64,000 bases of DNA from a candidate division WS1 bacterium (GCA_012522765.1 JAAYJW010000312.1:2753-66752); one strand, 5' to 3'. Positions 24,710 to 63,649 are shown, counted from the stretch's first letter. Numbers and translations are program-made. Notes: generated by a model from the letters alone, not told the origin.

Positions 24710-25648
24710 ATGCGTGTCGCGTTCTTCGGCACGCCGCCGCCCGCCGTGCCGTATCTTCGCGCGCTGGCGGCGAGCGAACATTCGATCGTGGCGGTCATAT
24801 CGCAGCCCGATCGTCCTGCCGGGCGTGGCCGCTCTCTGCGTCCCAGCCCGGTCCGTGCGGCTGCAGATGAGCTTGCTCTCCCGGTCATGACGCCTGAAGC
24901 GGCGTCGGATCAGGATTTCCTTGACGCGCTGGCGGAACTCAAGCCGCAGTTGGGGGTTGTAGTGGCGTATGGGCAGATACTGCGCCGGAAGCTGCTCGAT
25001 TTGCCGGAGCGGGGCCTCATCAATGTGCATTACTCCCTGCTGCCCCAACTGCGCGGGGCGGCGCCTGTCTACGGCGCACTGCGGCAGGGGCTTGATGTGA
25101 CCGGCGTCACCATCCAGCGCATGTCGCGGAAGCTTGACGCGGGCGACATCATCCTGAGGCGTGAGGTGCCGATCGAGCCCGATGACAATCGCGGCACGCT
25201 GACCGAAAGGCTGACGGAGGCGGGTGTGCCCCTGCTGCTTGAGGCGATGGCGCTGATCGAGCGGGGAGAGGCGCCCCGGACACCGCAGGATGATGAGCAG
25301 GCGACGTATGTCGGGCTGGTCCAGACCGACGATTGCCGGATTGACTGGTCGCTGCCGAGCGAACAGGTGAGGAATCTGGTGCGCGCATGCACCCCCTGGC
25401 CGGGTGCGTGGTGCCTTCTTGACGGCAATCGCGTGAAGGTGCAAGACGTGTCACTGGTGCAAAATGTCTTAAGACAGGAAGGGAGCCCGGGGCAGATCGT
25501 CGAAATGCCTCGTGCGAGAGGTCCTATTGTGATCACGGGGACCGGTGTGGTGGAAATCACGAGACTGCAGCCGCCTGGGAAGAGGTCAATGTCAGGGGAG
25601 GAGTTCCTGCGCGGCGCGAGGCTGCAGGTTGGAGATCGCTTTGACTGA
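24710..25648 (+). CDS. fmt: Methionyl-tRNA formyltransferase
   Basis: The N-terminal formyltransferase domain follows def (classic def-fmt pair). SLLP motif. Confidence 0.9.
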   Translation: MRVAFFGTPPPAVPYLRALAASEHSIVAVISQPDRPAGRGRSLRPSPVRAAADELALPVMTPEAASDQDFLDALAELKPQLGVVVAYGQILRRKLLDLPERGLINVHYSLLPQLRGAAPVYGALRQGLDVTGVTIQRMSRKLDAGDIILRREVPIEPDDNRGTLTERLTEAGVPLLLEAMALIERGEAPRTPQDDEQATYVGLVQTDDCRIDWSLPSEQVRNLVRACTPWPGAWCLLDGNRVKVQDVSLVQNVLRQEGSPGQIVEMPRARGPIVITGTGVVEITRLQPPGKRSMSGEEFLRGARLQVGDRFD

Positions 25649-25727
25649 TTAGTCCGCCGGCAATCATCACTTCCGACAACAGCGAATCTCGCCGGGTCAG
25701 CTCAGGCAGTCCGGAGGACGTAAACTG

Positions 25728-26084
25728 ATGGCCGCCGCTACCGAGACAATACAGCAGGCGCACGAACACCGCATCAACGGCGAATACGATGAGGCGATGG
25801 CCCTCTACCGCCAGGTGCTGGAAAAGGTGCCGGAGGAGGCCGAGGCTCTCTGGGGCCTGGGGCTGTCTCTGATGAACATCGGCGATTTCGACGAGGCGCT
25901 GGAAAGCATCTGTGCAGCGACGCAGATCGAGCCGCAGAACCAGCTCTACCTGCTCGATGCGGGTAAGCACTACACCATGCTGGGGATGTACGATGAGGCC
26001 AGGCCGTTCTTTGAGAAGGTTCTGGAGATAGACCCGACGTCGCAACACGGTGCAGAGGCACAGAAGCAGCTTTCGTACTACTAG
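25728..26084 (+). CDS. Tetratricopeptide-repeat protein
   Basis: Three TPR-like repeats (A..Y...L...P....AL..LG). Confidence 0.55.
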   Translation: MAAATETIQQAHEHRINGEYDEAMALYRQVLEKVPEEAEALWGLGLSLMNIGDFDEALESICAATQIEPQNQLYLLDAGKHYTMLGMYDEARPFFEKVLEIDPTSQHGAEAQKQLSYY

Positions 26085-26156
26085 GGATTCGGAGGGTATA
26101 TGTGAGCCGGGCCCGGGGTGGCGCAAGCGATGCCTCTGAGGGCCGGCTCTGCTGCT

Positions 26157-27992
26157 ATGGTAAAGGTAACATTCAAGCCCGGTGGCGAGAGCGGCGAGAC
26201 AGAGGCAGGCACCACGATTCTGGCTGCGGCAGCAAGCCTTGGAGTGACGATCACCGCTCCCTGTGGCGGGCGTGGCCGCTGCGGCAAGTGCCGCGTGATT
26301 GCGGAGAAAGGGTGCGCACCGCCTACGCCCTCGGAGCGCGATCAGTTGACGGGCGAGGAGCTTCGGCATGGCATCCGCCTCGCCTGCGAAGCCGTCCTGC
26401 TGGAGGACGCGCAGGTGATCATCCCGTCGGATTCGCGCACCATCAGCGGCAAGATTCTCGCCGATGATGCCCGCGAAGAGATCTCACTTCGCCCCAACGT
26501 CTCGCGTCGGACGGTGGTTCTCCCGGCCCCCAGCCTGTCCGATCAGCGTAGCGACTTCGAGCGGGTGGCGGATGGTCTCGGCACTCCCGCACAGAGTCTG
26601 AGGATGCATCGCGAGGCTCTTGCCGAGCTTCCGTCGGTGCTGCGAGACAATGACTTCAAGGTTGACGTCATCACCGTCGGCGACACCATCGCCGGAGTTC
26701 GCCCGCCGAATGCTCGCCCCTGCTGCCTCGGCGCGGCGGTGGACATCGGCACCACCACTGTGGTCGTCTATCTCGTGGACCTCTCCAGCGGCGAGCGGCT
26801 TGCGACTGCTTCGGCGCTGAATCCGCAGGCCCGCTGGGGCCATGACCTGATCTCGCGCATCGAGCACGTGCAGAGCACCCCGGCCGGGCTTGAGGATCTG
26901 CGCCGGAGCATCGTGGATCTGATCAACCGTCTGCTCGGTGAGACCACCGAGCAGGCCGGGGTCCGCAGGCGGGACATATACGAAGTCTCGATCGTCGGCA
27001 ACACCTGCATGCACCACATGTTCCTCGGCCTCGACCCGCGACATCTCGCGCACGCGCCCTACATTCCGGTTACGCGCGAGCCGCTGGAGCTTTCGGCTGA
27101 AGAGGCGGGTCTTGCGCTCAGCCCGGCGGCGAACGTATACTGCCTGCCGGTGATCGCGGGCTTCGTGGGCGCCGATACAGTCGGCGTGTTGCTCGTGTCA
27201 AGGCTGACCGAGCGCGATCATCCGACGCTGGCCATCGACATCGGCACCAACGGCGAAGTCATGCTCTGGTCGGGCGAGCGGCTGCTGGTGGCCTCCTGCG
27301 CTGCAGGTCCGGCCTTCGAAGGCGGCGAGATCCGGCATGGTGTGCGTGCTGCCGACGGGGCCATTGAGCGCGTCTGGCTCAGCAATGGAAGCATCGGCTA
27401 TGCGACGATCGGTTCCACGCGCCCCAACGGCATCTGCGGATCTGGGATCTTCGACACCGTTGCCACGCTGCTTGACAGCGGGGTTGCCGACAGCACCGGC
27501 CGGCTGGCCGATGAACAGGCCGCTGAGAAGCTGCAGCGGGGGCTGGTGGAGCGGCTGCGTGGCGAGGGCCCCCAGCGCGAGTTTGTCCTGGTGGAGAGCG
27601 CCGAGAGCGCCAACGGCGACATCGTCTTCACGCAGAAAGATCTGCGGGAAGTTCAGTTGGCGAAAGGTGCTGTGCGTGCCGCGGTGGAATTACTCTGTTC
27701 GGCGGCGGGGATAGAGGCCAATGATATCGCCGAGGTATTACTGGCGGGGGCCTTCGGCAACTACATTGACCGCCGCAGTGCGCTGCGGATGGGGCTGCTG
27801 CCGGAGGTAGGCGTGGAGCAGATCAGAGGCGTGGGCAATGCGGCCGGAGCGGGCGCGCTGGCCGCGCTGGTGTCCGTAGACGAGCGACAGCGGGCGGCGG
27901 AGCTGGCGCGGCAGGCGGAGCACATTGAGTTGATGGCCAGTCCCGCGTTCCAGATGGTCTTTGCCGACAGCATGATCTTTCCTGAGTCCTGA
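26157..27992 (+). CDS. RACo-like corrinoid reductive activation protein ([2Fe-2S] ferredoxin + ASKHA/DUF4445 ATPase)
   Basis: MVKVTFKPGGE...CGGRGRCGKCRV...LAC ferredoxin domain, then a DIGTTTVVVYLVD ASKHA N-terminal motif. The track ORF starts at 26118. Confidence 0.75.
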   Translation: MVKVTFKPGGESGETEAGTTILAAAASLGVTITAPCGGRGRCGKCRVIAEKGCAPPTPSERDQLTGEELRHGIRLACEAVLLEDAQVIIPSDSRTISGKILADDAREEISLRPNVSRRTVVLPAPSLSDQRSDFERVADGLGTPAQSLRMHREALAELPSVLRDNDFKVDVITVGDTIAGVRPPNARPCCLGAAVDIGTTTVVVYLVDLSSGERLATASALNPQARWGHDLISRIEHVQSTPAGLEDLRRSIVDLINRLLGETTEQAGVRRRDIYEVSIVGNTCMHHMFLGLDPRHLAHAPYIPVTREPLELSAEEAGLALSPAANVYCLPVIAGFVGADTVGVLLVSRLTERDHPTLAIDIGTNGEVMLWSGERLLVASCAAGPAFEGGEIRHGVRAADGAIERVWLSNGSIGYATIGSTRPNGICGSGIFDTVATLLDSGVADSTGRLADEQAAEKLQRGLVERLRGEGPQREFVLVESAESANGDIVFTQKDLREVQLAKGAVRAAVELLCSAAGIEANDIAEVLLAGAFGNYIDRRSALRMGLLPEVGVEQIRGVGNAAGAGALAALVSVDERQRAAELARQAEHIELMASPAFQMVFADSMIFPES

Positions 27993-28087
27993 TGAAGGCG
28001 TCATCCGCGCCCCATCGGCGCGTTAGGCTCTTGGCGCAAGTAGCTCCGGACGTTACGACCGCAGATCATACGGGAGGTTCATCGGAA

Positions 28088-28720
28088 ATGGCGGACCTGC
28101 AGGCACTTGCTAACGCTGTCATCGGTGGCGAGAGGGAGAACGCGCTAAGACTGACCGAGGAAGCCATTGACGAGGGTGTCAAGCCGAGCGTAATCATCAA
28201 CGACGGTCTCATCGCGGGGATGAGCGTTGTTGGCGAGAAATTCAAGAATAACGAGTTCTACGTGCCGGAGGTGCTGATCGCCGCGAGGGCCATGCAGACC
28301 GCCATGGAGCGTGTCAAGCCCCTCCTGGCCGAGGGCGAGATGACCTCTCGAGGCAAGGTTGTGATCGGCACGGTCAAGGGCGACCTGCATGACATCGGCA
28401 AGAACCTCGTTGCGATGATGCTCGAGGGCGGCGGCTTCGACGTCATAGACCTCGAGGTGGACGTATCGCCCGAGCAGTTCGTCTCGACGGCTGCCGAGAG
28501 CGGCGCCCACTGCATCGCTTTGTCGGCGCTCTTGACAACCACCATGCCTTCGATGAAGGATACGGTTGATGCGCTGGTGGAGGCCGGCCTCAAGGGGCAG
28601 GTCAAGGTCATCATCGGTGGCGCGCCGGTGACGCAGAGCTATGCGGATGAGATCGGCGCCGATGGTTACGCACCGGATGCCGCCTCTGCGGTGGACAAGG
28701 TAACCCAACTGCTGGCATAG
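28088..28720 (+). CDS. Cobalamin-binding corrinoid protein (MtbC/MtmC-like B12-binding domain protein)
   Basis: N-terminal helical cap, then VIGTVKGDLHDIGKN (DxHxxG B12 motif) and a Rossmann-like B12 domain. RBS GGAGGT. The alternative start 27992 overlaps the upstream stop. Confidence 0.8.
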   Translation: MADLQALANAVIGGERENALRLTEEAIDEGVKPSVIINDGLIAGMSVVGEKFKNNEFYVPEVLIAARAMQTAMERVKPLLAEGEMTSRGKVVIGTVKGDLHDIGKNLVAMMLEGGGFDVIDLEVDVSPEQFVSTAAESGAHCIALSALLTTTMPSMKDTVDALVEAGLKGQVKVIIGGAPVTQSYADEIGADGYAPDAASAVDKVTQLLA

Positions 28721-28837
28721 TCCCCGCTTGGAGGGGTTTCTGCTGCAGCTTCCATGCGCAGAAGCTATCACCGCCGGATCGCGCTGGTGATGGCTTCTGC
28801 GTTGTGCGCTCATGCAAGTCTACGGGAGTGAAGTGCC

Positions 28838-29272
28838 ATGCCGTGGCGTTGGATTGCGATGCTGCTTGTGGCTGTCTCGCTTGGGGCGGGCGGCCAGATG
28901 TGCCTGAAATTCGGGGTGGACCAGCTTGGTGGCGGCGGCTTGGTCGCGGTCATCAAGGGCATCTTCACGCCCTACGTCTTCGCCGGCTTCGTGCTCTACG
29001 GCCTGAGCTCAATCATCTACCTGATGGTCCTGGCACGTCTGGATCTGAGCTTCGCCTATCCTTTCGTTGCGCTCAGCTTCGTCTTTGTCACGCTGCTGTC
29101 GTGGTGGTTATTGCAGGAACAGATTCCAGGACTTCGTATCATCGGTCTCGTCCTGATTATGGGCGGTGTGCTTACCGTGGCGGCCAGTTACCGCGCCGAA
29201 GCCGCGCAGGCCGCCGAGGTCCCGCAATCGCGGGTAGCCCTTCAGACACCAACGGACCCCGGAGTGACCTGA
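28838..29272 (+). CDS. Small DMT-superfamily membrane protein (ArnE/ArnF/GtrA-like polyprenyl-phosphate-sugar flippase candidate)
   Basis: Four predicted TM helices, 144 aa. First gene of the glycosylation operon. Confidence 0.5.
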   Translation: MPWRWIAMLLVAVSLGAGGQMCLKFGVDQLGGGGLVAVIKGIFTPYVFAGFVLYGLSSIIYLMVLARLDLSFAYPFVALSFVFVTLLSWWLLQEQIPGLRIIGLVLIMGGVLTVAASYRAEAAQAAEVPQSRVALQTPTDPGVT

Positions 29273-29326
29273 GGCTTTCTGGGTCCGGCTTTGTGCCCGG
29301 CGCCGCATTCGCGTATAATCCCGTGC

Positions 29327-31528
29327 ATGAGCGGCGAGTCCGGCGACCGTACTGCGACGTGGATCGCCACCATCGCACTGGTGGCGATCGCGCTGGCGTT
29401 CTGGGGGGACTGCATCTTCGGCCCTTGGACGCCGCTTGCGGCGGGCTTTCAGGCACAGATGCAGCCGTGGGCGAGTGAGGCCGATCTGCCGGGAACCGAC
29501 CGCCAGTGGTCTCCGCTGCTCTGGGACAGCGTCGCGCAGTTCTACCCGTGGCGCCTGCTGCTCGCCAGGTCCATGCGCGGGGGTGAGCTTGCGCTGTGGA
29601 ATCCCCATCAGATGTGCGGGTATCCCTTCCTCTCCAACGCTCAGTCCGCCCTCTTCTACCCCCCCAACTGGCTGCTGCCGCTCTTTGACGTAAAGTGGGG
29701 GATGGGCCTGCTGTCGTGGCTGCACTACGCGCTGGCGGCGGTACTTACGATGCTCTTCGGGCGGAAACTCGGGCTCGGAGCGCTTCCGGCCGCCTTTGTG
29801 GGCATCGCCTTCGCGTTTGGCGGCTTCATGGTAACGTGGACCGAGTTGCCGACGCTGATCAACTCCGCGACATGGCTGCCGGGGGCTCTTCTGGGCGTGG
29901 CGCTGATCTACGAGCGGCGTCGCTGGGGCCTGCCACTGCTGGGGGCTTCGCTGGCAATGGCGCTGTTGGCAGGGCATCTGCAGATCGCAGCGTATGTCTG
30001 GATGGTCGCTCTTGTCTACGCACTCGCGCGGGCGCTCTGGGAGGCAGTTAACCGTCGCGCGGCGCATCTGGGTCGGCTTGCGGCGGCGGTAGCGCTGGGG
30101 CTGCTGCTAAGCGCGCCTCAGACGCTTCCCGCGCTCGAGCTTGCAGCGAACTCCCCCCGAGGCGCTGCGGGGCCATCCGAAGCGGGGTGGCAGTTCCAGC
30201 AGGAGCGGGTGCTGCAGGTGGCGGAACTTGTCCTGCTTGTCAGCCCGGATGCGTTCGGCAATCCCGCGCATGGCGATCACGAACTGACGCGCTATGGCAT
30301 TCCCTACTCGGAGCACTGCGGCTTTGTCGGCATCGTCACGCTGCTCCTCGCGCTTCTCGGCGCATGGTTCTCGCGCACGAGGTCATACGCGTTCTTTGCG
30401 GCCCTGGCGGTGCTGTCGCTTCACGTGGCGATGGGTGGACCGCTGGCTGAGGCGATGTACTTCTATCTGCCGAAGCTGGGGCAGGCGGGCTCGTTCACCC
30501 GCTTCCTGTCGGTCTTCACCTTCGCGGCGGCAATGGCCGCCGGGTTGGGCCTCGAGGGCATCTGCCGCTATCTGAAGCAGCGGGACGAGGTCGCGGGAGA
30601 CGAAGGCTACTGCGGCTGGAACCTCTGTGCACCTGCGGGGCTGTGCGTGGTTGCACTCGTTGTCCTCTGCTACGAACTGCTTCCCTGGGCGCACACTTTT
30701 CTGCCTCGGACGCGGCGGGAGCATGTGTACCCGATGACGCCATCTATCGAGCGACTGATGGCCGCCGAGGGGCGCGTGCTCACGGTGACCCCGCGCGAGG
30801 GCTGGAGCATGGCGCGTGTGCCGGAGGCGGTGCTGCCGCCCAACTCAGCGACGGTTTACGGATATGACGCCATCGGCGGCTACGATTCGCTGATGCTGAC
30901 GCGCTTCAGAGCGTTCCTCAGTGCGTCCGAAGGGACTGAGGTAGCGCCTCCACCCAACGGAAACATGCTGCTGCCGATGGCTGCCTGCGGGCCGGGACAG
31001 GCTCTGATGGGACTGGACACGGTGATAGCACGGCGTCAGCCGGAGCCGGCGCCGGGGCATGACTGTGATGACTGGGGGCTTTCAGTCACGCAGAGCCTCG
31101 GCGGTACGGCTATCTGGCGGGTAGCGGAGGCCCTGCCGCGGGCGTTTGTGGCCCCGGACTGGCAGGAGCTTCAGCAGATAGCGGCGGACGATCCGACCGC
31201 TATGCGGGCGGCTGTGGCGTCCTGCGAGTGGGAGCGCAGCGGCAATGCCGCTATCAGGGTGGCTGTGCCGGTTGAGCGCGAGGGCGATCACCTGGTGGCC
31301 ACGGAAACCTTTGCCCCCGGCTGGAGCGCTTATGTGGACGGTCGGCGCCGGGAGGCAGTGCCTTTCGGCGACACATTCATCAGCGTGATTCTTCAGTCTG
31401 ATGACACCGAGGTCCGCTTCGTGTACGAGTCATCGACGATCAAGGCCGGTTGCTTCGTGGGAATGCTGGGGCTGGCGGCATTGATGGTGGCGGCGACATG
31501 GCGGTCAGGGAGATATGGCAAGTATTGA
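29327..31528 (+). CDS. YfhO family GT-C membrane glycosyltransferase-like protein (paralog 1)
   Basis: DSVAQFYPWRLLL...LWNPH..GYPFLSNAQSALFYP matches the YfhO signature. Polytopic, with a C-terminal periplasmic domain. Confidence 0.75.
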   Translation: MSGESGDRTATWIATIALVAIALAFWGDCIFGPWTPLAAGFQAQMQPWASEADLPGTDRQWSPLLWDSVAQFYPWRLLLARSMRGGELALWNPHQMCGYPFLSNAQSALFYPPNWLLPLFDVKWGMGLLSWLHYALAAVLTMLFGRKLGLGALPAAFVGIAFAFGGFMVTWTELPTLINSATWLPGALLGVALIYERRRWGLPLLGASLAMALLAGHLQIAAYVWMVALVYALARALWEAVNRRAAHLGRLAAAVALGLLLSAPQTLPALELAANSPRGAAGPSEAGWQFQQERVLQVAELVLLVSPDAFGNPAHGDHELTRYGIPYSEHCGFVGIVTLLLALLGAWFSRTRSYAFFAALAVLSLHVAMGGPLAEAMYFYLPKLGQAGSFTRFLSVFTFAAAMAAGLGLEGICRYLKQRDEVAGDEGYCGWNLCAPAGLCVVALVVLCYELLPWAHTFLPRTRREHVYPMTPSIERLMAAEGRVLTVTPREGWSMARVPEAVLPPNSATVYGYDAIGGYDSLMLTRFRAFLSASEGTEVAPPPNGNMLLPMAACGPGQALMGLDTVIARRQPEPAPGHDCDDWGLSVTQSLGGTAIWRVAEALPRAFVAPDWQELQQIAADDPTAMRAAVASCEWERSGNAAIRVAVPVEREGDHLVATETFAPGWSAYVDGRRREAVPFGDTFISVILQSDDTEVRFVYESSTIKAGCFVGMLGLAALMVAATWRSGRYGKY

Positions 31529-32892
31529 AGACGCTACTGGTTTTCCCTCGTTTCAGGTACCCCTCGGGCGATCCGCCTCTGGGTGTTGCTTATCTCGCCG
31601 CGGCAATGCGCGAGCGAGGACTGGATGTTGAGATCTTTGACGCTACCTTCGTGCGCAATCCACTGGAGCGACTGCGTGAGAGGCTGGTGCGGGGGCTGTA
31701 TGATCTCGTCGGCGTGAGCGCGCTGACGTCTATGATCGGCGATGCGGCCGATGTTGCACGGGTAGTGCGTGAGAGCAGCCCGGCGACGATGGTGGTGGCC
31801 GGAGGTCCGCACCCGACGGTGGCGCCGGAGCACACGCTCTCGCTCGGTGTGTTCGATGCTGTGATGGTGGGGGAGGGCGAGGAGACGCTGCCGCAACTGG
31901 TCGAGTCGGGCCTGCGGCTGGAGGATCAGCCCGGGATCGCCTACCTCGCAGATGGCGAGATGGTGCGTAATGATCCTGCGGAGGTCGTTGCGGACCTTGA
32001 CGCGCTGCCCAACCCGGCGTGGGACCTGCTGGAGATGGACCGCTACCTGGGATTGTGGTATCAGCTTGATGCGGTGCGCTATGGCGTGCGCGGAACGTCC
32101 ATCATGGCCTCGCGCGGCTGCCCCTATCGCTGCACGTACTGCCAGCCGACGCTGGGGACGATCTTCGGGCGGAGAGTCCGGCGACGTTCGCCTCAGTCGC
32201 TGGTGGCGGAGGCGGAGGAACTCAAGCGCAGGTTCGGCATTGAGGGCCTGATGTGGCTCGACGACACCTTCCTTCTCGACCGGGCATGGATGCGCGAGTT
32301 GTGCGAGGCGATGATCGAGGCGAAGCTTGGGCTTATCTGGGGCTGCAACGTGCGCGCCGATGTCTGCGACCGCGAGAGCCTGCAGATCATGCAGCAGGCC
32401 GGGCTTCGGATGGTGCATGTGGGCATCGAATCGGCGTCGCAGCGCGTGCTGGATGAGATATATGACAAGGGGATCACGCTCGAGCAGGTGCGTGAGGCGG
32501 TGGAGATGGCGAGCGATCTGGGGCTGAAGGTACGCGGCTACTTCATGCTCGGCGCGCCGACGGAGACTGAGGAGGAGGTGCGGGCGAGTGTGCAACTGGC
32601 GAATGAGTTGCCGCTGGATGACGTGACCTTCAGCATCACCACGCCGCTCCCGCACACCTACCTCTACGATTCGACGCTCGATCTGATCTCAGCGGAGTTC
32701 TCGCACTTCGACTACTACAAGTCGGCGGTCTACGACAGCGACCTTGTTCTGCCGGGACAAACACTTGACAGACTGAAGAAGCTGGCGTACATCAAGTTCT
32801 ACCTGGGGCCGAAGCGTCTCTGGCGTACGATCCAGTCGATGCTGGGGATATCGGGCCTGCGGAAGGCGCTGCTGAAGATACAGAGGTTCTGA
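31525..32892 (+). CDS. B12-binding (class B) radical SAM enzyme
   Basis: N-terminal cobalamin-binding domain (PLGVAYLAAAMRERG...VVAGGPHPT) and radical SAM CPYRCTYCQ. The start overlaps the YfhO stop (TTG 31525 or ATG 31498). Confidence 0.85.
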   Translation: MKTLLVFPRFRYPSGDPPLGVAYLAAAMRERGLDVEIFDATFVRNPLERLRERLVRGLYDLVGVSALTSMIGDAADVARVVRESSPATMVVAGGPHPTVAPEHTLSLGVFDAVMVGEGEETLPQLVESGLRLEDQPGIAYLADGEMVRNDPAEVVADLDALPNPAWDLLEMDRYLGLWYQLDAVRYGVRGTSIMASRGCPYRCTYCQPTLGTIFGRRVRRRSPQSLVAEAEELKRRFGIEGLMWLDDTFLLDRAWMRELCEAMIEAKLGLIWGCNVRADVCDRESLQIMQQAGLRMVHVGIESASQRVLDEIYDKGITLEQVREAVEMASDLGLKVRGYFMLGAPTETEEEVRASVQLANELPLDDVTFSITTPLPHTYLYDSTLDLISAEFSHFDYYKSAVYDSDLVLPGQTLDRLKKLAYIKFYLGPKRLWRTIQSMLGISGLRKALLKIQRF

Positions 32893-32894
32893 AC

Positions 32895-34778
32895 ATGGAG
32901 GCGACTGCGGGGACAAGTGGGCGGGAGGCGCTGGTGACGGGGCGCGAGATGGCGCCGGTGCTTCTGTGGGCGCTGGTCATCGCGGCGCTGACGGCATGGC
33001 CCTACGTCTGGGCGGTGCAGAGCGCGGGGCCGGATCAGCAGTTTCAGGGCTTCCTGTGGGGTGTAGATGACGGGAACGTCTACCTGTCGTGGATTCGGCA
33101 GGCCTCCGAAGGGCGCGTATTGCTGCGCAATCAGTACACGACCGTCGAGCAGAATCCGCACTTCTTCAATGTCTTCCTGCTGGCGCTGGGGAGGGTGACG
33201 GCGTGGACGGGCCAGCACCCCGGGATCATCTTCCATGCGTCGCGCCTGCTCGGGAATGTCGCGTTGCTGCTGATGATCTATCTGCTGGCGGCCTTCGTGA
33301 CACGCTCGGTGGCAGCGCGCTGGGGAGCGCTTGCGCTGGCGTCACTGGGTTCGGGCTTCGGATGGCTGGCGGCGATCTGGGCGAGCAGCGTTCCGCCGCC
33401 ACTGCCGCCGCCGCTGCGTCCTCCCGACTACGCCCCCCTGCCACCGCAGACGTGGCAGGTGATGCCCGAGGCGGTCACATTCCTGTCAATGCTGCTCAAT
33501 CCGCTCTTCGTGTGGTCCATGGCGCTCATGTGCGGAGTGCTCGTCTCGGCCGCCATCGCCCTCGAGCGCCGGAGCATCGCGTGGGCGGTGCCCGCGGGTC
33601 TGCTGCTGCTGCTTGTGGGCAATATGCACACCTACGACCTGCCCGTTCTGCACACCACGACGCTGCTCTTCGCTCTCATCCTCGTGCTACAGCGGCGGAT
33701 CAAATTCGCGGACGCGCTGCTGATTTATGCGATCATCTTCATCATTGCCCTGCCGGCCCCGGTGTGGGGGTGGTGGGCGGCGAATCAGGACCCGTCGTAC
33801 CTCGCGAAGGTTGAGACACCGACGCTGTCACCTCCGGTGCATGACTACATCGTCGGGTATGGGCTGATCCTGCTGCTGGCGATCCCCGGGGCATGGTACG
33901 CGATCAAGCGGCGGCGAGAGAACCCGCGCCTGCTGCTGCCGGTCTGCTGGGTGGGCATCAACGCGCTGCTGCTGTACGCGCCGGTGGCCTTCCAGCGTAA
34001 GATGGCTGAGGGGCTGCACATCCCGCTCTGCCTGCTGGCGGGCATTGCGCTCGCGCTGGTGATTGCACCGGCGCTCGCGGTGCATCGGGTGCGACCGGAG
34101 AGTGTGCCGGGAGTGGTTCCGGCGGGTGCGAGGCCGAAGTGGCGCTCGCGACCGCCGACGCAGCTTGAGTATGCGTTGCTTGTCGTGCTGGCAGTGGCGG
34201 TGACGTTGCCATCAAACCTGCTTTTCGTGAACACGTGTCTCCACCATGTGGCGACGAACAACCGCGATCTTCTGCGCTACCTGCAGCCGCCGATCTATCT
34301 GAGCTTCGATGAGGTCAACGGGATCAAGGCGCTGGCGGCGAAGGCGGGGCCGGACGAGATCGTGCTGTCGTCATCGCTGACTGGTAATCACATCCCGGCG
34401 CGAGCATCATGCCTGGTCTTCAGCGGCCACTGGGCGGAGACGCTGGAGTTCGGGCGGACGGTGGACTATGTCGGGCAGTTGCTGCTGCCGGGGCGCGAGA
34501 GACACGTGCTCTGGTCGGCGGTCAGGCGCATCAATGCGAGCTATGTCTTCTACGGTCCGCTGGAGGCGCTGCTGGCGGAGCAGATGATGCTCGCGGCGGA
34601 CCTCGAGCCTCCCGAGGATCCGGCCGCCGAGTTTCGCCGGTCCACCGAGCAGTTCCTGAGGCCGGTCTTCGAGCGGGGCGAAGTGACCGTCTATCGCTTC
34701 GACCCGAACGCGCAGGTGGAGCTTGACTTCCCACGGCATGAGGGGCCGATCCCAACTTCGGTCGCGGATGCGCTATGA
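32895..34778 (+). CDS. Polytopic membrane protein, putative GT-C fold glycosyltransferase
   Basis: About 13 hydrophobic helices, a proline-rich loop and a C-terminal soluble domain. No confident family assignment from motifs. Confidence 0.45.
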   Translation: MEATAGTSGREALVTGREMAPVLLWALVIAALTAWPYVWAVQSAGPDQQFQGFLWGVDDGNVYLSWIRQASEGRVLLRNQYTTVEQNPHFFNVFLLALGRVTAWTGQHPGIIFHASRLLGNVALLLMIYLLAAFVTRSVAARWGALALASLGSGFGWLAAIWASSVPPPLPPPLRPPDYAPLPPQTWQVMPEAVTFLSMLLNPLFVWSMALMCGVLVSAAIALERRSIAWAVPAGLLLLLVGNMHTYDLPVLHTTTLLFALILVLQRRIKFADALLIYAIIFIIALPAPVWGWWAANQDPSYLAKVETPTLSPPVHDYIVGYGLILLLAIPGAWYAIKRRRENPRLLLPVCWVGINALLLYAPVAFQRKMAEGLHIPLCLLAGIALALVIAPALAVHRVRPESVPGVVPAGARPKWRSRPPTQLEYALLVVLAVAVTLPSNLLFVNTCLHHVATNNRDLLRYLQPPIYLSFDEVNGIKALAAKAGPDEIVLSSSLTGNHIPARASCLVFSGHWAETLEFGRTVDYVGQLLLPGRERHVLWSAVRRINASYVFYGPLEALLAEQMMLAADLEPPEDPAAEFRRSTEQFLRPVFERGEVTVYRFDPNAQVELDFPRHEGPIPTSVADAL

Positions 34779-37156
34779 GCAGAGACGAGCGCCGACATGG
34801 CCCCAGGCGGGCGGACGATCTGCTTGCCCTCGGCTTTCTGCTTGTGGTATCGCTTGCGGTGCTGTGGCAGGTGACGATCGGCGACCGGGCAATGCTGCCG
34901 ACCGGCCTCTACCACCGCATGCAGCCGTGGCGGGCTCACGCGGACGAGCTTCCCCGGGTGGACGGCCCGCTCAACCCGATCCTCGACGCGGTGCAGCAGT
35001 TCTACCCGTGGCGGCTCTACGCAGCGCGAACGGTGCGGGAGGGGGAGGTGCCGCTGTGGAACACGCAGATGCTCTCCGGGGCGCCCTTCGTAGCGAACGG
35101 CCAGTCGGCGGTCTTCTACCCGGAGACGTGGCTGCACTACGTGATTGACCCGCTGAAGGCGCTCGGTTGGGCGACGCTGGCTTTCTATCTCATCGCGGGA
35201 TGGGGCATGTACCTGTTCCTGCGGGTGCTTTCGGCGCGGCCCGTGGCGGCGGTCATTGGCGCGCTGGCTTTCATGTTCAGCGGCTTCTTCACTGGCTGGC
35301 TGACCTTCCCGGCACTACGTTCGGTCGCCGCATGGCTACCGCTGGCGCTGGTGGGGATCGAGCTTGCCGTGCAGCGGCGTCGAGTTGCGTGGCTGGGACT
35401 CACCTCCCTCGCGGTCGGGATGCAGTTCCTCGCGGGACACCTGCAGGTAGCGATCTACGTGCTGACCTGCCTTGGGCTCTACGCGCTGTTTCGCAGCGCC
35501 GCAGTGGCGAGGAACCGCTCGAGGGCCGAGGGGTGGCGGCTGGGGGGCGCAGTTGCTGCAGCGGTGGTGCTGGGGACTCTGCTGGCCGCCGCGCAGTTGG
35601 GGCCGTCGCTGGAGATGGCCCGGCTGAACTACCGGGTGGCGGGAGTGAGCTATGAAGCGCAGGTGGCACATGCGCTGGCCCTGCCGCAGGCGCTGTTGAT
35701 GCTGATGCCGGATGCGTTCGGGAACCCGGTGGACGGCAATCACTGGGGCGGCGACCTCAATGCGTGGTGGGGGAGAGCCTACCGGGTCTACACGGAGACG
35801 GCGTGGTATATCGGAATCGCCCCGCTGCTGCTGGGCGTGGCTGCTGTCGGCCTGGGTCGGGGCGCTCAACGCTGGTTCTGGCTGGCGATCGTTCTGCTGG
35901 GGCTTGCTCTCGCCTTTGGCACGCCGCTCAACGCGCTCTTTCGGTGGCTGGTGCCCGGCTACGGTCAACTGACCGGGATCGGCAGAGCGCTGGCGCTCGT
36001 CTGCACCGGCGCCTCGGTGCTGGCAGGGCTTGGCGCCGAGGTGCTGATGAGGACGCTTCGGCCCGACCGGGCGATGAAGCTCGTTGCGGCGGCTGCACTG
36101 GTGCTGCTGCTGGCGGGAATCGCGGGTGGACTGGCAGTGTGGATATTCACGGGCACCCTGGAGGCGGCGGAGCCTTCACTGCAACTTGGCGGGTACACGC
36201 TGGCGCAGATGGCGCGGTTCGGGGTTCTGCTGATCGCGGCCTGGGCGCTGGTGTCGCGGGGTGTGCGTGGGGAGGGGCGTTACACCTGGCACGCTCTCGC
36301 GCTGCTCGTGGCGCTGGATGTCGGCTACTTCGCGGGACACTTCACGCCCGCAGGGAGAACGGACTTCGCGCAGGTTGAGGCCGGACTGCTGGAGCCGATC
36401 GAGCAGGCGCAGGGGCCGCAGCGCATCGCGACGCTTGGACCGGACTTTCTCAACCGCATCGCCCCCAACACACACATGATCCTCGGGCTGCAGTCGTGCG
36501 AGGGCTCAGAGTCGCTGATCTACGCGCCCTATCACCGGCTCATCTCGGCGGCTCAGAGTGAGCGCTTCGACTTCGCGCAGGTGGATCCGCGGCATCCGGT
36601 GCTTGACCTCATGGCGGTGGGCTGGCTGGCCTCCATGGTGGAGATTGATGAATCCGGATGGCGGCTGCAGGGCCGCTATGAGACGCTGATGTACGCGAAC
36701 GAAGAGGCGGCGCCGAGGGCGTTCCTGGCGCGGCGGGCGGTCGGTGCGGCTGATGATGACGCGATCTTCCGGGCAATCACTTCGGAAGATGCAGACCCGC
36801 TGACGATCCACCTGCTCGGCACCGCGGATGAAGCGCCGACCCACGAGGGTGAGGTGCGTGTCGCAGCATATGAGGCTAACGCGGTGCGAGTGGAGGGTGA
36901 GATGCCTTCCGGGGGATGGCTGGTGCTGGCGGATGTGGCCTATCCGGGTTGGCGCGCGTATGCCGATGGAGTCGAGGCGCCGCTGATCGCCGCCGATCTG
37001 GTTCGGCGCGCCGTGCATCTGCCGGACGGCGCTCGTGAGGTGCAGTTTGTGTACCTTCCCGCAGCGTTCCGCGTCGGCAGCTTCATGAGCCTGTTGGCTC
37101 TGGGGGCGCTCGGTGCGCTGATCGGAGTTGTGCTGGTGGGGAGACGAAGAGGATGA
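34775..37156 (+). CDS. YfhO family GT-C membrane protein (paralog 2)
   Basis: DAVQQFYPWRLY...LWNTQ..GAPFVANGQSAVFYP. ATGA overlap with the upstream gene. Confidence 0.75.
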   Translation: MSRDERRHGPRRADDLLALGFLLVVSLAVLWQVTIGDRAMLPTGLYHRMQPWRAHADELPRVDGPLNPILDAVQQFYPWRLYAARTVREGEVPLWNTQMLSGAPFVANGQSAVFYPETWLHYVIDPLKALGWATLAFYLIAGWGMYLFLRVLSARPVAAVIGALAFMFSGFFTGWLTFPALRSVAAWLPLALVGIELAVQRRRVAWLGLTSLAVGMQFLAGHLQVAIYVLTCLGLYALFRSAAVARNRSRAEGWRLGGAVAAAVVLGTLLAAAQLGPSLEMARLNYRVAGVSYEAQVAHALALPQALLMLMPDAFGNPVDGNHWGGDLNAWWGRAYRVYTETAWYIGIAPLLLGVAAVGLGRGAQRWFWLAIVLLGLALAFGTPLNALFRWLVPGYGQLTGIGRALALVCTGASVLAGLGAEVLMRTLRPDRAMKLVAAAALVLLLAGIAGGLAVWIFTGTLEAAEPSLQLGGYTLAQMARFGVLLIAAWALVSRGVRGEGRYTWHALALLVALDVGYFAGHFTPAGRTDFAQVEAGLLEPIEQAQGPQRIATLGPDFLNRIAPNTHMILGLQSCEGSESLIYAPYHRLISAAQSERFDFAQVDPRHPVLDLMAVGWLASMVEIDESGWRLQGRYETLMYANEEAAPRAFLARRAVGAADDDAIFRAITSEDADPLTIHLLGTADEAPTHEGEVRVAAYEANAVRVEGEMPSGGWLVLADVAYPGWRAYADGVEAPLIAADLVRRAVHLPDGAREVQFVYLPAAFRVGSFMSLLALGALGALIGVVLVGRRRG

Positions 37157-38793
37157 CACCGGCGGTGATGCGCGGGCTCGAGGCGCTGCTTGTCTTCGCG
37201 CTCGTCACGATCCTGCTTGCCACCACCGCGCACAGCTACGGCCTCGGTTACGACGAACCGGTGTACATGTCGCGGATGCAGGAGGCGTCCGCGTGGCTGC
37301 GGCTGCTGCGGATTGACCCGGGGGAGGCGCTGAGCCGCGATGGCGTCAGCCGCTTCTGGGACGCGCGCAGCGAGCAGCAGCCCGGCTTTCTCAAGCTCTG
37401 GGGGGCGGTCACGACGCCCCTCGTGGCGAGTTGGCTCTCGCCGCTCGCGGCGCTGCGGTTCGGCACGCATCTGCTGGTGGGGCTGCTGTGCGCGAGTCTC
37501 TACGTGCTGGTGGCGCCGCTGTGGGGGCGGCTCGAGGGCATTGCTGCGGTCGGGGCGCTGATTACTCTGCCGCGCACCTTCGCGCACGCGCATCTTTTCG
37601 CGCTGGATGCTCCCGTCATGGCGGCGACTTTCATCTCACTGCATTTCTTCTACCTGTGCGCGCGCGAGCGAAGTTGGTGGTGGGCGGCGGCAGGCGCGGC
37701 AGTGTGGGGCGTGGCGCTGAGCATCAAGGTGAACGCGTTCTTCGTGCCGGTGATAGTGCTCCCGTGGCTGGCGCTCTACGCGCGTGACGCGCTGCTGCCC
37801 GCACTTGCGTGCGGTGTCACGCTCGGTCCGCTGAGCTTCATGGCAACATGGCCGTGGCTGTGGTACGACACGATCAGCCGCCTCGGGGCGTACATGGCCT
37901 TCCACGCGCGGCACTGGCAGATTCACGTGACTTACTTTGGACAGCGGCTCGCGCCCGCGCCGTGGCACTATCCGATCGTGATGACGGCAATCACAACGCC
38001 GGTGGTGACGCTCATCGCCGCCGTCGGAGGTGCGGTGCGGATGGTGCGCGAACCTCACGGCGAGGTAGAGGGCGCCGACTGGCGCTCCCGCTGGGCCGAT
38101 GGAGGCCAGTGCAGGAGGGCATTGGCGGCCCTCGTCGGCTGGGCGCTGCTGGTGAATCTCGTGCTCAATTCGCTCCCCGGCACGCCCAAGTACAATGGCG
38201 TGCGGCTGTTCCAGCCGATCTTCCCGCTGCTGGCGCTGGCAGCGGGAGTCGGGATAGGCTGGATGGCGCGGTGGGTGGCGCTTAAGCTGGAGGAACGGGG
38301 TGCGGCGCTGGGCGAAGCAACGCCACGGATCGCCGCCGCGCTGGTGGTCCTCGTGGCACTGGCGCTGCCGCTACGTGACGTGCTTGCGTATCACCCGCAT
38401 CAACTGAGCTACTACGGCCCGCTGATCGGCGGGCTGAGTGGGGCGGCGCAGGCGGGCATGGAGCCGACGTACTGGGGCGAGACGTATCTTGATGGGGCGT
38501 TGTGGCTCAATGAGCACGCCCCGCCGGGGGCGGTGGTCTGGATCGAACCGCCGGGTGTTGAGGCCACGATGCGCGTGTATCAGGAGCTTGGCCTGCTCAG
38601 GACGGACATCCGCACCACCGCCGGCTCGGATGCACTCGCGACTGCGGATTACGCGCTGTTTCAAAACAAGGAGACGGAGTTCACTGACGATTCGCGGAGG
38701 CTACTGCAGACGCGGGAGCCCTGTGGCGTCGTACAGGAACAGGGAGTGCCGCTGCTGCTGATCTTCTGTCTGACTGATGGAGGCGAGACGTGA
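37153..38793 (+). CDS. GT39/GT83-like (PMT/ArnT family) polyprenyl-phosphate-sugar dependent glycosyltransferase
   Basis: YGLGYDEPVY in the first extracytoplasmic loop (the DE/DD motif of PMT/ArnT). Polytopic. ATGA overlap. Confidence 0.65.
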   Translation: MTPAVMRGLEALLVFALVTILLATTAHSYGLGYDEPVYMSRMQEASAWLRLLRIDPGEALSRDGVSRFWDARSEQQPGFLKLWGAVTTPLVASWLSPLAALRFGTHLLVGLLCASLYVLVAPLWGRLEGIAAVGALITLPRTFAHAHLFALDAPVMAATFISLHFFYLCARERSWWWAAAGAAVWGVALSIKVNAFFVPVIVLPWLALYARDALLPALACGVTLGPLSFMATWPWLWYDTISRLGAYMAFHARHWQIHVTYFGQRLAPAPWHYPIVMTAITTPVVTLIAAVGGAVRMVREPHGEVEGADWRSRWADGGQCRRALAALVGWALLVNLVLNSLPGTPKYNGVRLFQPIFPLLALAAGVGIGWMARWVALKLEERGAALGEATPRIAAALVVLVALALPLRDVLAYHPHQLSYYGPLIGGLSGAAQAGMEPTYWGETYLDGALWLNEHAPPGAVVWIEPPGVEATMRVYQELGLLRTDIRTTAGSDALATADYALFQNKETEFTDDSRRLLQTREPCGVVQEQGVPLLLIFCLTDGGET

Positions 38794-39308
38794 TGACGGG
38801 TGCTCAGGCCGACCGGGTGCCGCTCCCCGATCCGGTACGGATACTTCTGCTTGACATAGATGGCGTGCTGACCGACGGCGGGATGTACTTCAGCGCCGAG
38901 GGTCAGGCGATGAAGCGCTTCGATGTGAAGGACGGGCTGGGGGTGGTGCGACTGGCGGAGTTGGGCTTCCCGACGGCTGTCGTCAGCGGCGATCGATCGG
39001 CGATCAGCGCCGCGCGTTGCGACGTGCTGCGCATCGGGCACGTGGTGCTGGGGCGCATGGACAAGGAGACAGCTGTGAACGAGGTGCTGGAGATGACCGG
39101 CATCGCGGCGGAGAGCGCCGTGTACATCGGCGATGACATCACGGACCTCCCGGCGCTGCACATGGTCGGCCTCGGAGTGGCGGTAGCGGATGCGGTGGAC
39201 GTGGTGCGAGAGCAGGCGGACTGGGTCACGAGACGCCCGGGCGGGCATGGTGCAGTGCGGGAGATATGCGACGCTATCATTGAGCAGATCGCCCGGCGGG
39301 AGAGCTGA
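38793..39308 (+). CDS. KdsC-family HAD phosphatase (3-deoxy-octulosonate/nonulosonate-phosphate phosphatase-like)
   Basis: LLLDIDGVLTDGGMYF...DG.G...L...G......SGD...GDDITDL. Confidence 0.7.
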   Translation: MTGAQADRVPLPDPVRILLLDIDGVLTDGGMYFSAEGQAMKRFDVKDGLGVVRLAELGFPTAVVSGDRSAISAARCDVLRIGHVVLGRMDKETAVNEVLEMTGIAAESAVYIGDDITDLPALHMVGLGVAVADAVDVVREQADWVTRRPGGHGAVREICDAIIEQIARRES

Positions 39309-39326
39309 GGATCGTTGGAGGCGCAA

Positions 39327-40295
39327 GTGAAGACCGACCTGTCGCTCTGCATCGTCTCTTACAACTGCAAGGAACTGCTGGTGGAGTGCCTGCGCAGCAT
39401 ATTCGAGCACGTCGCCGGGCTGGAGGTCGAGGTGATCGTCGCCGACAACGCCTCCTCCGACGGCACCGTTGAGATGCTGCGGGCTGATTTCCCGCGGGTG
39501 CGCCTGCTCGCTTTCGAGGACAACCGCGGGTTCGCCGCCGGGACAAACGCGGCTATGGCCGCGGCGGGCGGCGAAGTGCTGATGATGCTGAACCCGGATA
39601 CGACGCTACGCGAGGGGGCTGTGCAGCAGCTCGTGGCCTTCCTGGGGGAACGCCCTGAGGCGGGGGCGGTCGGCCCCGCGATCTTCGATCCCGAGGGAGG
39701 GCTGCAGATGACCTGCCACCTCTTCCCGACGCTGTGGCAGACGCTGATACGCCAACTGGGGCTGCACCGTGCCTTCCCGGCCTCCCGCACTTTCGGCGCG
39801 TACGATATGACGTGGTGGGATCACAGCCAGCCGCGGCGCGTGGATTGGCTCTCCGGCGCTTGCATCGCCGTGCGGCGGGATGTTTGGGAGCGAGTGGGCG
39901 GTCTGGACGAGGGCTTCTTCATGTATGCGGAGGATGTGGATTGGTGTTACCGGCTTGCCCAGGCTGAGTTTGAGCGGTGGTATCTCCCCGGCGCCGAGAT
40001 TGTGCATCATGAAGCGGGGAGCTGGGCCGACGCGTCTCGGGAACGGATCATCGCGTCGCACCGCTCTATGTTCCGCTACTTCGGCAAGAACTACGGCCAT
40101 CTGCAGGAGGTGGCTGTGCGGCTGCTGGTGGCGTGGGGGGCGCTGATCCGCGGCAGCTTCTGGACCATCATGGGTCCGGTGCTGGGGGAGCGGGAGGCGT
40201 TCGTGTCGAGCTATGAGACTCACTTCCGCGTCGCCGAACGTGCGGCGGCGATGGAGGAGACGTGGCGCGAGCGACGCCGGGGGGGGCTGTCATGA
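39327..40295 (+). CDS. GT2 family glycosyltransferase (paralog a)
   Basis: SLCIVSYNCKELL...ADNASSDGT...DNRGFAAGTN...LNPDT. GTG start with RBS GGAGG. Confidence 0.8.
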   Translation: MKTDLSLCIVSYNCKELLVECLRSIFEHVAGLEVEVIVADNASSDGTVEMLRADFPRVRLLAFEDNRGFAAGTNAAMAAAGGEVLMMLNPDTTLREGAVQQLVAFLGERPEAGAVGPAIFDPEGGLQMTCHLFPTLWQTLIRQLGLHRAFPASRTFGAYDMTWWDHSQPRRVDWLSGACIAVRRDVWERVGGLDEGFFMYAEDVDWCYRLAQAEFERWYLPGAEIVHHEAGSWADASRERIIASHRSMFRYFGKNYGHLQEVAVRLLVAWGALIRGSFWTIMGPVLGEREAFVSSYETHFRVAERAAAMEETWRERRRGGLS

Positions 40296-42321: not shown

Positions 42322-42483
42322 TCTGCGCACGATTTCGTGAACAAAGGAGACAGGGCGCGGAGAGTTGAATATGTTCGTTCGAGTTGACCGCTCGTCCAGT
42401 TGGCGGAGGTTCACCCGGGGGACGAGTCGGGAGGAGAGAGTAGAGTGGCAGAGCAGCTACCTCGTACCGGAACCGGACGCAGC

Positions 42484-63340: not shown

Positions 63341-63560
63341 GAATGCTCCCGGCGCGTCAGTTCGGATCATTTGAAGTGACGTAGTAAGAAAGTGTCCGCG
63401 TACTGTGTCCGGGCGAGGCGCTCGGGCTGCGCACCGGATTGCGCCCCGCCGGCCAAAAGCCCGGACGCCAGGCGGCCCTCGCCTGGAGAAGCGACATGCA
63501 ACGTCTGCACTTGCGCAAATTCTACTTTCGTCCGATAATGCCCCTGAGCCGCATGGCTCG

Positions 63561-63649
63561 CCTGAGGCAGAGCGGTGGTGGCCGACCACCATCAGAGAGG
63601 GAAACGTAGCTCGGCTACGTCCCGGCAGCCGGCCACCACCAGTCTCAGG
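63561..63649. other. Nested multi-hairpin element abutting the DUF5320 stop codon (candidate structured 3'UTR/leader RNA)
   Basis: Outer stem CCTGAG...CTCAGG encloses GGTGGTGG...CCACCACC, TGGTGG-ccga-CCACCA and ACGTAGC-tcg-GCTACGT. Confidence 0.2.

Follow-up and report, generated by a model that had tools for sequence, protein, structure and literature searches.

A B12-domain radical SAM gene, optional in its operon, among GT-C glycosyltransferase genes of a candidate division WS1 bacterium

The 64,000-nucleotide stretch of a candidate division WS1 bacterium analysed here (GCA_012522765.1 JAAYJW010000312.1:2753-66752; hereafter the window, meaning the whole stretch) encodes, at 31525-32892 on the forward strand, a 455-residue radical S-adenosylmethionine (SAM) protein with an N-terminal B12-binding domain, which we refer to as rSAM. 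The gene lies within a tightly packed operon (28838-42321) containing four genes for membrane glycosyltransferases of fold type C (GT-C), and it is an optional module, present or absent, of this otherwise conserved operon. We consider that rSAM is probably a cytoplasmic class B enzyme of an uncharacterised and widespread clade, serving as an optional tailoring step in glycosylation that proceeds through polyprenyl-phosphate (polyprenyl-P) sugars and GT-C enzymes. The G+C content of the window is about 65%, and the closest named relatives of its proteins are from metagenome-assembled genomes labelled Armatimonadota or candidate division WS1.

The radical SAM protein and its start codon

The predicted protein clearly has the architecture of the class B (cobalamin-domain) radical SAM enzymes, as a sequence-only reading of this DNA had proposed. 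Both constituent Pfam domains score above their cut-offs: B12-binding (PF02310) with 81.5 bits (cut-off 32.1) over residues 26-134 of a 464-residue translation, corresponding to a predicted N-terminal Rossmann-type domain at 31573..31899 (+), and Radical_SAM (PF04055) with 96.2 bits (cut-off 29.5). The B12 domain contains GGPHPT and GEGE motifs that are conserved in an alignment of 28 homologues (alignment A1; 47–79% identical), and the PF04055 core contains the CxxxCxxC motif of the radical SAM superfamily. The translation at 32107-32151 reads ASRGCPYRCTYCQPT; the motif within it, CPYRCTYC (32119..32142, +), is the predicted radical SAM [4Fe-4S] site, and its cysteines C199, C203 and C206 are encoded by codons at 32119, 32131 and 32140. 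C199 is invariant in the alignment, and C203 and C206 are at least 90% conserved.

An AlphaFold model of rSAM (predicted local distance difference test, pLDDT, 92.3) has as its best structural match in Foldseek the enzyme AprD4 (6FD2; template modelling (TM) score 0.74–0.76), after which it superposes on MgmA (TM 0.70–0.75) and then on TsrM, CysS, TokK and OxsB. Sequence matches in the PDB are led by AprD4 (92 bits, restricted to the radical SAM core, residues 154-387) and by 9CCB (91 bits), the methyl-coenzyme M reductase (MCR) glutamine C-methylase MgmA/QCMT, with TokK, TsrM, OxsB and CysS ranking after these. The cobalamin-bound class B structures MgmA (9CCB), TsrM, TokK, CysS and OxsB resemble rSAM in their N-terminal Rossmann-type B12 domain and in the CxxxCxxC radical SAM barrel that comes after it, and match its model with query-normalised TM scores of 0.65–0.71 and E-values of 1e-24 to 1e-18. 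They differ in that identities are only 17–25%, and rSAM is shorter, without the large C-terminal domains of TokK, TsrM and OxsB; its context in membrane glycosylation and its proposed substrate match none of these enzymes.

The rSAM reading frame is open over 31450..32892 (+), ending in a TGA stop at 32890-32892, and has two in-frame candidate starts, ATG 31498 and TTG 31525 (sequence 31498-31530). TTG 31525 is the start supported by the alignment, because all 28 homologues begin at this position, with the pattern M[KR]xLLVFPRF; most database homologues are 455 residues long. An automatic gene call of an identical sequence picked ATG 31498, giving 464 residues, of which the nine extra ones have no counterpart in any homologue. 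TTG is also found at the start position in close relatives (L006-L012), and GTG in two further loci (L013 and L014). The TGA stop of the upstream open reading frame (ORF), which encodes a 745-residue YfhO-type protein, lies at 31526-31528 and forms a TTGA overlap with the TTG codon, in agreement with the earlier proposal that the rSAM start overlaps the YfhO stop at 31528, with TTG and not ATG 31498 as the supported codon. NTGA overlaps with the upstream gene occur in at least 12 related loci (L007-L009, L011-L015, L024, L074, L076 and L079), including some from other phyla where the upstream gene is a different one. The translational coupling of rSAM and YfhO is real and of an ordinary kind, since four-base overlaps are common in packed operons and several more are present in this one, at 34775, 37153, 38790 and 41437.

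The sequence-only reading had also placed rSAM between GT-C membrane enzymes, and this arrangement is confirmed on both sides. The YfhO-type GT-C membrane glycosyltransferase gene (29291-31528, +) has a Pfam YfhO match, and only 2 nucleotides beyond the rSAM stop codon begins the gene of a 627-residue polytopic membrane protein (32895-34778, +), for which AlphaFold and Foldseek give a GT-C fold model.

The rSAM clade and its gene neighbourhoods

Two sister Armatimonadota genomes (L087 and L088), recovered by a search with the corrinoid protein encoded upstream of the operon, have the same operon with no rSAM between the first YfhO gene and that of a 620-residue GT-C enzyme. The order in both is coaBC, metK, priA, def, fmt, a tetratricopeptide repeat (TPR) protein, RACo, the corrinoid protein, a small multidrug resistance (SMR)-type protein, YfhO (745 residues), GT-C (620 residues), YfhO-like (805 residues), PMT and a haloacid dehalogenase (HAD)-type protein; the first YfhO and 620-residue GT-C genes overlap directly, and the rSAM-less stretches are at 10270-14363 in L087 and 6073-10166 in L088. 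rSAM is therefore an optional add-on, as expected of a tailoring enzyme. In another relative (L089) rSAM is present, and a gene for a 247-residue glycosyltransferase of family 2 (GT2) follows the GT-C gene.

A scan of one genome per species yielded 80 loci with proteins 43–80% identical to rSAM. Paralogues within the same loci are only 30–33% identical to it, and the clade members therefore constitute a distinct orthologous clade. Its bacterial members are found in Armatimonadota (including Candidatus Zipacnadia and WS1), Anaerolineae and other Chloroflexota, Fermentibacteria, Aegiribacteria, Acidobacteriota, Myxococcota and other Deltaproteobacteria, Nitrospira and Fibrobacterota, and its archaeal members in Woesearchaeota, Undinarchaeota, Nanoarchaeota and a Methanobacterium.

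The clade displays several neighbourhood types, which were drawn after non-overlapping gene calls had replaced a first clustering that contained shadow ORFs. In the Armatimonadota (type A) the order is RACo, corrinoid protein, SMR, YfhO, rSAM, 627-type GT-C, in some cases a GT2, YfhO and PMT_2. In Fermentibacteria and Aegiribacteria (type B) it is a Wzt-type ATP-binding cassette ATPase, a PMT_2 GT-C, rSAM, a YdjC deacetylase, a GT-C, a family 9 glycosyltransferase (GT9) and a second B12-rSAM, and in Acidobacteriota (type B') GT2, GT-C, rSAM, GT2, YdjC and a second rSAM. Type C, seen in Myxococcota, Deltaproteobacteria, Nitrospira and Woesearchaeota, consists of GT2, rSAM and a class I methyltransferase, with membrane proteins of the PMT_2 or PTPS_related type frequently close by, and type D, in Anaerolineae, of a PMT_2 GT-C, an LPG_synthase_TM flippase-like protein and rSAM. 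Among the 55 loci in which rSAM is flanked by two or more genes in both directions, a polyprenyl-P-type GT2 or a large polytopic membrane protein lies no more than three genes away in 44, and two further loci have the type D arrangement. The best matches of the neighbouring GT2s are polyprenyl-P sugar synthases (PgfS, PpgS, dolichyl-P hexose transferase, AglJ and ArnC); the YdjC neighbour best matches HpnK (128 bits), and HpnL is the second-best match of the flippase-like neighbour. Orthologues in at least six phyla thus adjoin polyprenyl-P GT2, GT-C, flippase-like or YdjC genes, which makes for a strong link of rSAM to the glycoconjugate pathway of its neighbours, in line with the earlier suggestion.

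In many loci outside the Armatimonadota a single glycan cluster contains two or three B12-rSAM paralogues with a mutual identity of about 30% (L046, L061, L063-L069, L072, L078, L085, L038 and L045), and in the archaeal metagenome-assembled genomes L038 and L045 each of these is paired with its own Dpm1-like GT2. A class I methyltransferase gene is directly downstream of rSAM in L077 and L079, and adjacent on the opposite strand in L060, L070 and L083; that of L079 best matches the uncharacterised DVU_1556 family of NCBIfam and more weakly CpaM, a corrinoid protein-associated methyltransferase.

The operon and flanking genes

All operon genes are on the forward strand, overlapping by 1–4 nucleotides or separated by gaps of 2–19 nucleotides. 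Counts from a promoter and terminator scan of 25500-43000 did not exceed those in shuffled sequence and are uninformative on the operon boundaries. The first gene (28838-29272) encodes a small multi-transmembrane EamA/SMR-like protein of 144 residues, conserved in about 20 loci, whose best NCBIfam matches are ArnE (41 bits, cut-off 92) and ArnF (38.9 bits, cut-off 99), both sub-threshold, with weak Pfam matches to EamA and TMEM234; this ArnE/F-like protein is a candidate flippase for polyprenyl-P-sugar. The longest ORF in the region, 28804-29478 (+), was rejected as a GC-rich shadow frame, the conserved gene being in another frame.

The YfhO gene that follows scores 54 bits with Pfam YfhO (PF09586; cut-off 28.5) and has weak C-terminal matches to PgfM1 and PgfM2. 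Its product is 745 residues long from a TTG start and 733 from ATG 29327, the start chosen by an independent gene call, and the gene is kept upstream of rSAM in about 30 Armatimonadota loci. The 627-residue protein downstream of rSAM has no Pfam or NCBIfam match, and its AlphaFold model (pLDDT 93.1; predicted TM score 0.91) has a GT-C fold, with STT3, AftA, AglB, PglB, ArnT and DPY19 as the top Foldseek matches (E-values 1e-10 to 1e-6). About 160 relatives were found, nearly all of the named ones from Armatimonadota, and two carry DUF6541; the protein is a candidate for a new GT-C family. An apparent companionship of this family with rSAM across phyla was rejected as an artefact of out-of-frame shadow ORFs inside the GC-rich rSAM gene, which linked unrelated proteins. 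After non-overlapping gene calls the family is confined to loci of the Armatimonadota type, and the downstream gene in Fermentibacteria is the YdjC deacetylase.

Next in the operon are a second YfhO-like GT-C gene (34775-37156; 793 residues, with Pfam YfhO at the C-terminus and DUF7657), whose product is a paralogue of the 745-residue YfhO with 38% identity, and a PMT_2-type GT-C glycosyltransferase gene (37153-38793; 546 residues, Pfam PMT_2 28.3 bits, cut-off 26.1), which completes the set of four. The remaining operon genes encode a KdsC-family HAD sugar-phosphate phosphatase (38790-39308; 172 residues, NCBIfam TIGR01670 136.7 bits, cut-off 107) and three predicted cytoplasmic glycosyltransferases, namely a GT2 (39315-40295; Pfam Glycos_transf_2), a family 4 glycosyltransferase (GT4; 40262-41440; Glycos_transf_1) and, as the last gene, another GT2 (41437-42321; Glycos_transf_2). 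A histidine kinase gene (42400-43731, +) is located 3' of the operon, and the housekeeping genes coaBC, metK, priA, def and fmt upstream of the operon region. Elsewhere in the window are a second small radical SAM protein of 310 residues without a B12 domain (60499-61431, -) and, near it, a CbiA/ParA-type P-loop protein with two 4Fe-4S ferredoxin motifs (62465-63592, -).

Candidate substrate, reaction and precedents

Because radical SAM chemistry depends on SAM together with a low-potential reductant, enzymes of this type are cytoplasmic; the donors of GT-C enzymes are linked to polyprenyl phosphate and are used on the external side of the membrane. The companions that recur around the clade (polyprenyl-P GT2, sugar deacetylase, flippase-like protein and GT-C enzymes) jointly outline a pathway of the Arn-like or three-component kind, in which only the nucleotide sugar and the lipid-linked sugar can be reached from the cytoplasm, and we therefore propose a polyprenyl-P-linked sugar as the likely substrate of rSAM, a nucleotide precursor being less likely. 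From the gene content and its conservation, which are observed directly, we infer the following steps. At the inner membrane face, a GT2 polyprenyl-phosphate glycosyltransferase would attach a sugar to the lipid carrier; this GT2 is encoded in the cluster in relatives, and here it may be the GT2 at 39315 or that at 41437, or be encoded elsewhere. rSAM, whose expression would be coupled to that of the upstream YfhO through the TTGA overlap, would then reductively cleave SAM at its [4Fe-4S] cluster, abstract hydrogen from the lipid-linked sugar at an unactivated carbon, which it would functionalise. The ArnE/F-like protein would flip the modified donor, and the four GT-C enzymes (YfhO, the 627-residue protein, the second YfhO and PMT_2) would transfer sugars to an extracytoplasmic acceptor.

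Several observations weigh against this proposal. No curated NCBIfam model reaches its own cut-off with rSAM and no member of the clade is characterised, so that substrate and chemistry rest on gene context. In the window no Dpm1/PgfS-like GT2 was found, and the hidden Markov model of the clade's GT2 family (cluster 7) scores only 42–44 bits against the two operon GT2s; a polyprenyl-P-type GT2 is encoded in the cluster in the relatives L012, L013, L023, L031 and L089 and in other phyla. About one fifth of the related loci have no GT2 or GT-C neighbour, as in Aegiribacteria with a sulfatase and paired rSAMs. One lineage (L037, P0091 and P0104) keeps rSAM in its operon position with two of the three cluster cysteines lost, and from its sequence this orthologue may be a retained inactive pseudo-enzyme. 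Finally, the best structural match, AprD4, binds no cobalamin, AprD4 and ArsL having related domains that do not bind it (PMC12931638), and very small DPANN archaeal genomes carry several rSAM paralogues, so that dependence on cobalamin is itself only presumed. In the L037 gene (10001-11353) the motif region reads RGCPFDRSDSTPAL, with a 3-residue deletion nearby.

The curated families assign no chemistry, since all of their scores are far below the cut-offs. BchE (TIGR02026) is the top family at 201.8 bits (cut-off 481.35), collinear over residues 25-444, followed by HpnJ (TIGR03471) at 188.1 bits (cut-off 577.6) over nearly the full length. Lower scores are obtained with MgmA (148.8, cut-off 360), ApyD (146), the Sden_1168 family P-methyltransferase (145, cut-off 575), a ladderane-associated family (138), BzaD (125), PhpK (107.9, cut-off 600), AprD4 (NF033070; 107.8, cut-off 500, residues 159-395 only) and HpnR (103.6, cut-off 650), and with a C-methyltransferase family for ribosomally synthesised and post-translationally modified peptides (100.3, cut-off 282), KedN5 (66.7, cut-off 700) and TsrM (45.8, cut-off 500). 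rSAM thus belongs to none of the curated C-methylase families, nor to that of AprD4, for which the match is also of partial length. Membership of the BchE and HpnJ families is equally lacking on score; photosynthesis genes are absent from the window, and hopanoid (shc/hpn) genes from the window ORFs scanned. BchE, the anaerobic Mg-protoporphyrin IX monomethyl ester cyclase, resembles rSAM in its top curated score and is the name given by the Joint Genome Institute (JGI) to several homologues; we rejected this identity on score and on the lack of photosynthesis context and regard the name as annotation carry-over. The common annotation of clade proteins as BchE or YgiQ is misleading.

The sequence-only reading had proposed rSAM as a candidate C-methylase and would have taken closest homology to BchE/HemN-like non-methylating enzymes as evidence to the contrary. 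Methylation was not borne out as stated and counts as one possibility among several: BchE and HpnJ, which do not methylate, do outscore the methylases, as the contrary case would have it, but at scores that place rSAM in neither family. The comparison with class B enzymes that the same reading called for likewise divides, its best structural neighbour being a sugar diol-dehydratase (AprD4) and the next a methylase (MgmA). Sequence and predicted fold do not fix the chemistry of rSAM; its nearest characterised relatives include a cobalamin-free sugar dehydratase and a C-methylase as well as an oxidative cyclase and an enzyme presumed to contract a ring.

C-methylation via methylcobalamin has close to an even chance of being the rSAM step; it is favoured by the prevalence of methylases in class B, and also because the donor stays transferable when the alteration is at a carbon other than the anomeric one. 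The stricter form, in which the sequence-only reading is taken literally and rSAM is a methylcobalamin-dependent C-methyltransferase that methylates the sugar or lipid product of the neighbouring enzymes at an unactivated carbon, we hold tentatively, at somewhat less than an even chance. Most characterised class B enzymes are methylases (PMC12931638), the N-terminal domain scores strongly for B12-binding, the protein aligns in sequence and structure with the cobalamin-bound methylases MgmA, TsrM, TokK and CysS, and a lipid-linked sugar methylated away from its anomeric carbon would still serve as a GT-C donor. It has to be set against this that BchE and HpnJ head the curated ranking with the methylase families lower, that AprD4 is the best structural neighbour, and that the sequence has no feature diagnostic for methyl transfer.

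A non-methylating radical reaction, such as AprD4-like dehydration, epimerisation or an HpnJ/OxsB-like rearrangement, is possible although on the doubtful side; it is favoured by the Hpn-like set of neighbours, the ranking of curated families and the structural match to AprD4. In its specific form, with the lipid-linked sugar undergoing either an HpnJ/Cds/OxsB-type ring contraction to a cyclitol-like head group or an AprD4-type 1,2-diol dehydration or epimerisation to a deoxy or epimeric sugar, we consider it rather unlikely. The relevant precedent is the HpnI/HpnK/HpnJ(/HpnL) pathway to bacteriohopanetetrol cyclitol ether (PMC13459092), in which a radical SAM protein with a B12 domain has as its partners a GT2, a YdjC deacetylase and a membrane protein of flippase-like type, acting on a lipid-linked hexosamine. 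The clade neighbours in other phyla mirror this set (GT2, HpnK-like YdjC and flippase-like protein), and HpnJ, HpnK and HpnL are the best or near-best scores for rSAM and the neighbours of its orthologues. These scores are nevertheless below the equivalog cut-offs, the carrier in the window is presumably polyprenyl phosphate and is followed by GT-C transferases, and the window operon has neither YdjC nor an HpnI-like GT2. An HpnJ-type contraction through C1 is the less likely variant because it would abolish the reactivity of the glycosyl-phosphate donor that the GT-C enzymes need. For the dehydratase variant, the apramycin radical SAM 1,2-diol dehydratase AprD4 is the best match of rSAM in structure and among PDB sequences and acts on an aminoglycoside sugar, but its sequence similarity is limited to the radical SAM core and excludes the N-terminal domain, and no AprD3-like partner was identified.

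That rSAM acts on a different substrate altogether is improbable. The version in which its target is a protein, a peptide or some other metabolite, comparable to the action of MgmA on MCR, and in which it is merely co-transcribed with envelope genes we judge decidedly improbable: the protein glutamine C-methylase MgmA is among the closest solved structures, and some related loci have no glycosylation neighbours, yet the neighbourhood of polyprenyl-P GT2, GT-C, flippase-like and sugar deacetylase genes recurs in distant bacterial phyla and in archaea despite completely different gene orders, and rSAM fits exactly between two GT-C genes, joined to them by overlaps or 2-nucleotide spacers.

Besides rSAM, the only cobalamin-related genes of the window are about 3 kb upstream, where a small TPR protein (25728-26084, +; 118 residues) precedes a RACo/AcsV-like corrinoid reductive activase (26118-27992, +; 624 residues) and an MtgC/MtbC-like corrinoid protein with a DxHxxG motif (27992-28720, +), the latter two identified by Pfam and NCBIfam. 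The sequence-only reading had called for a check for cobalamin genes; such genes are indeed close by, but the pair persists in genomes without rSAM. The very highly conserved trio invariably comes after priA-def-fmt in Armatimonadota, where it immediately precedes the operon in about 22 loci, and no corrinoid-dependent methyltransferase was found in the 64-kb window. That RACo and the corrinoid protein are a dedicated module for cobalamin loading, reactivation or methyl relay to rSAM is nonetheless very improbable, and we largely reject it, given that L087 and L088 retain the trio and the rest of the operon without rSAM, that the conserved housekeeping genes priA, def and fmt further upstream mark the arrangement as deep synteny, that unrelated genes separate the corrinoid unit from the operon in L049, that neither RACo nor a corrinoid protein occurs within 10 kb of the clade members outside the Armatimonadota, and that the conservation of the corrinoid protein (72–100% identity in the top 120 clusters) far exceeds that of rSAM, with many homologues named methionine synthase by JGI. 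The pair is regarded as a housekeeping one-carbon module adjacent by synteny, and the trio may be a split methionine-synthase-like module.

The proposed tailoring of a polyprenyl-P-linked sugar fits the framework of three-component extracytoplasmic glycosylation (PMC11127046, PMC7389260), in which systems such as CsbB/GtcA/YfhO, PgfS/PgfM1, ArnC/ArnE-F/ArnT and PpgS/Rv3779 combine a GT2 polyprenyl-P synthase, a small flippase and a GT-C enzyme. The operon resembles these in having adjacent GT-C genes (YfhO, PMT_2 and the 627-residue protein with the GT-C fold) and an ArnE/F-like protein, with PgfS/PpgS/ArnC-like GT2s in related loci, and differs in having four GT-C genes in a row and rSAM as an optional insert. 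A full-text literature search found no three-component glycosylation system containing a radical SAM enzyme, and nothing relevant that combines B12 radical SAM with YfhO, or radical SAM with any of GT-C, polyprenyl and flippase; two recent reviews, covering class B and lipid-modifying radical SAM enzymes, list no enzyme acting on polyprenyl-linked sugars (PMC12931638, PMC13459092). The enzyme class and the pathway type are familiar, whereas their combination appears undescribed and is phylogenetically widespread.

The main interest of this locus is the conserved, optional placement of an uncharacterised clade of B12-rSAM genes in lipid-linked glycosylation clusters, and the sister genomes with and without rSAM in an otherwise identical operon offer a clean comparison for identifying the product. 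There is just short of an even chance that the clade is an undescribed bacterial and DPANN family performing radical chemistry directly on polyprenyl-phosphate-linked sugars, as an optional fourth, tailoring component of three-component GT-C systems, with a C-methylated, deoxygenated or rearranged envelope sugar as its product. If so, lipid-linked sugar donors would be a new substrate class for cobalamin-type radical SAM enzymes, and a sugar altered at an unactivated carbon would be part of the envelope glycans of several little-studied phyla, among them Armatimonadota, Fermentibacteria, Chloroflexota and DPANN archaea.

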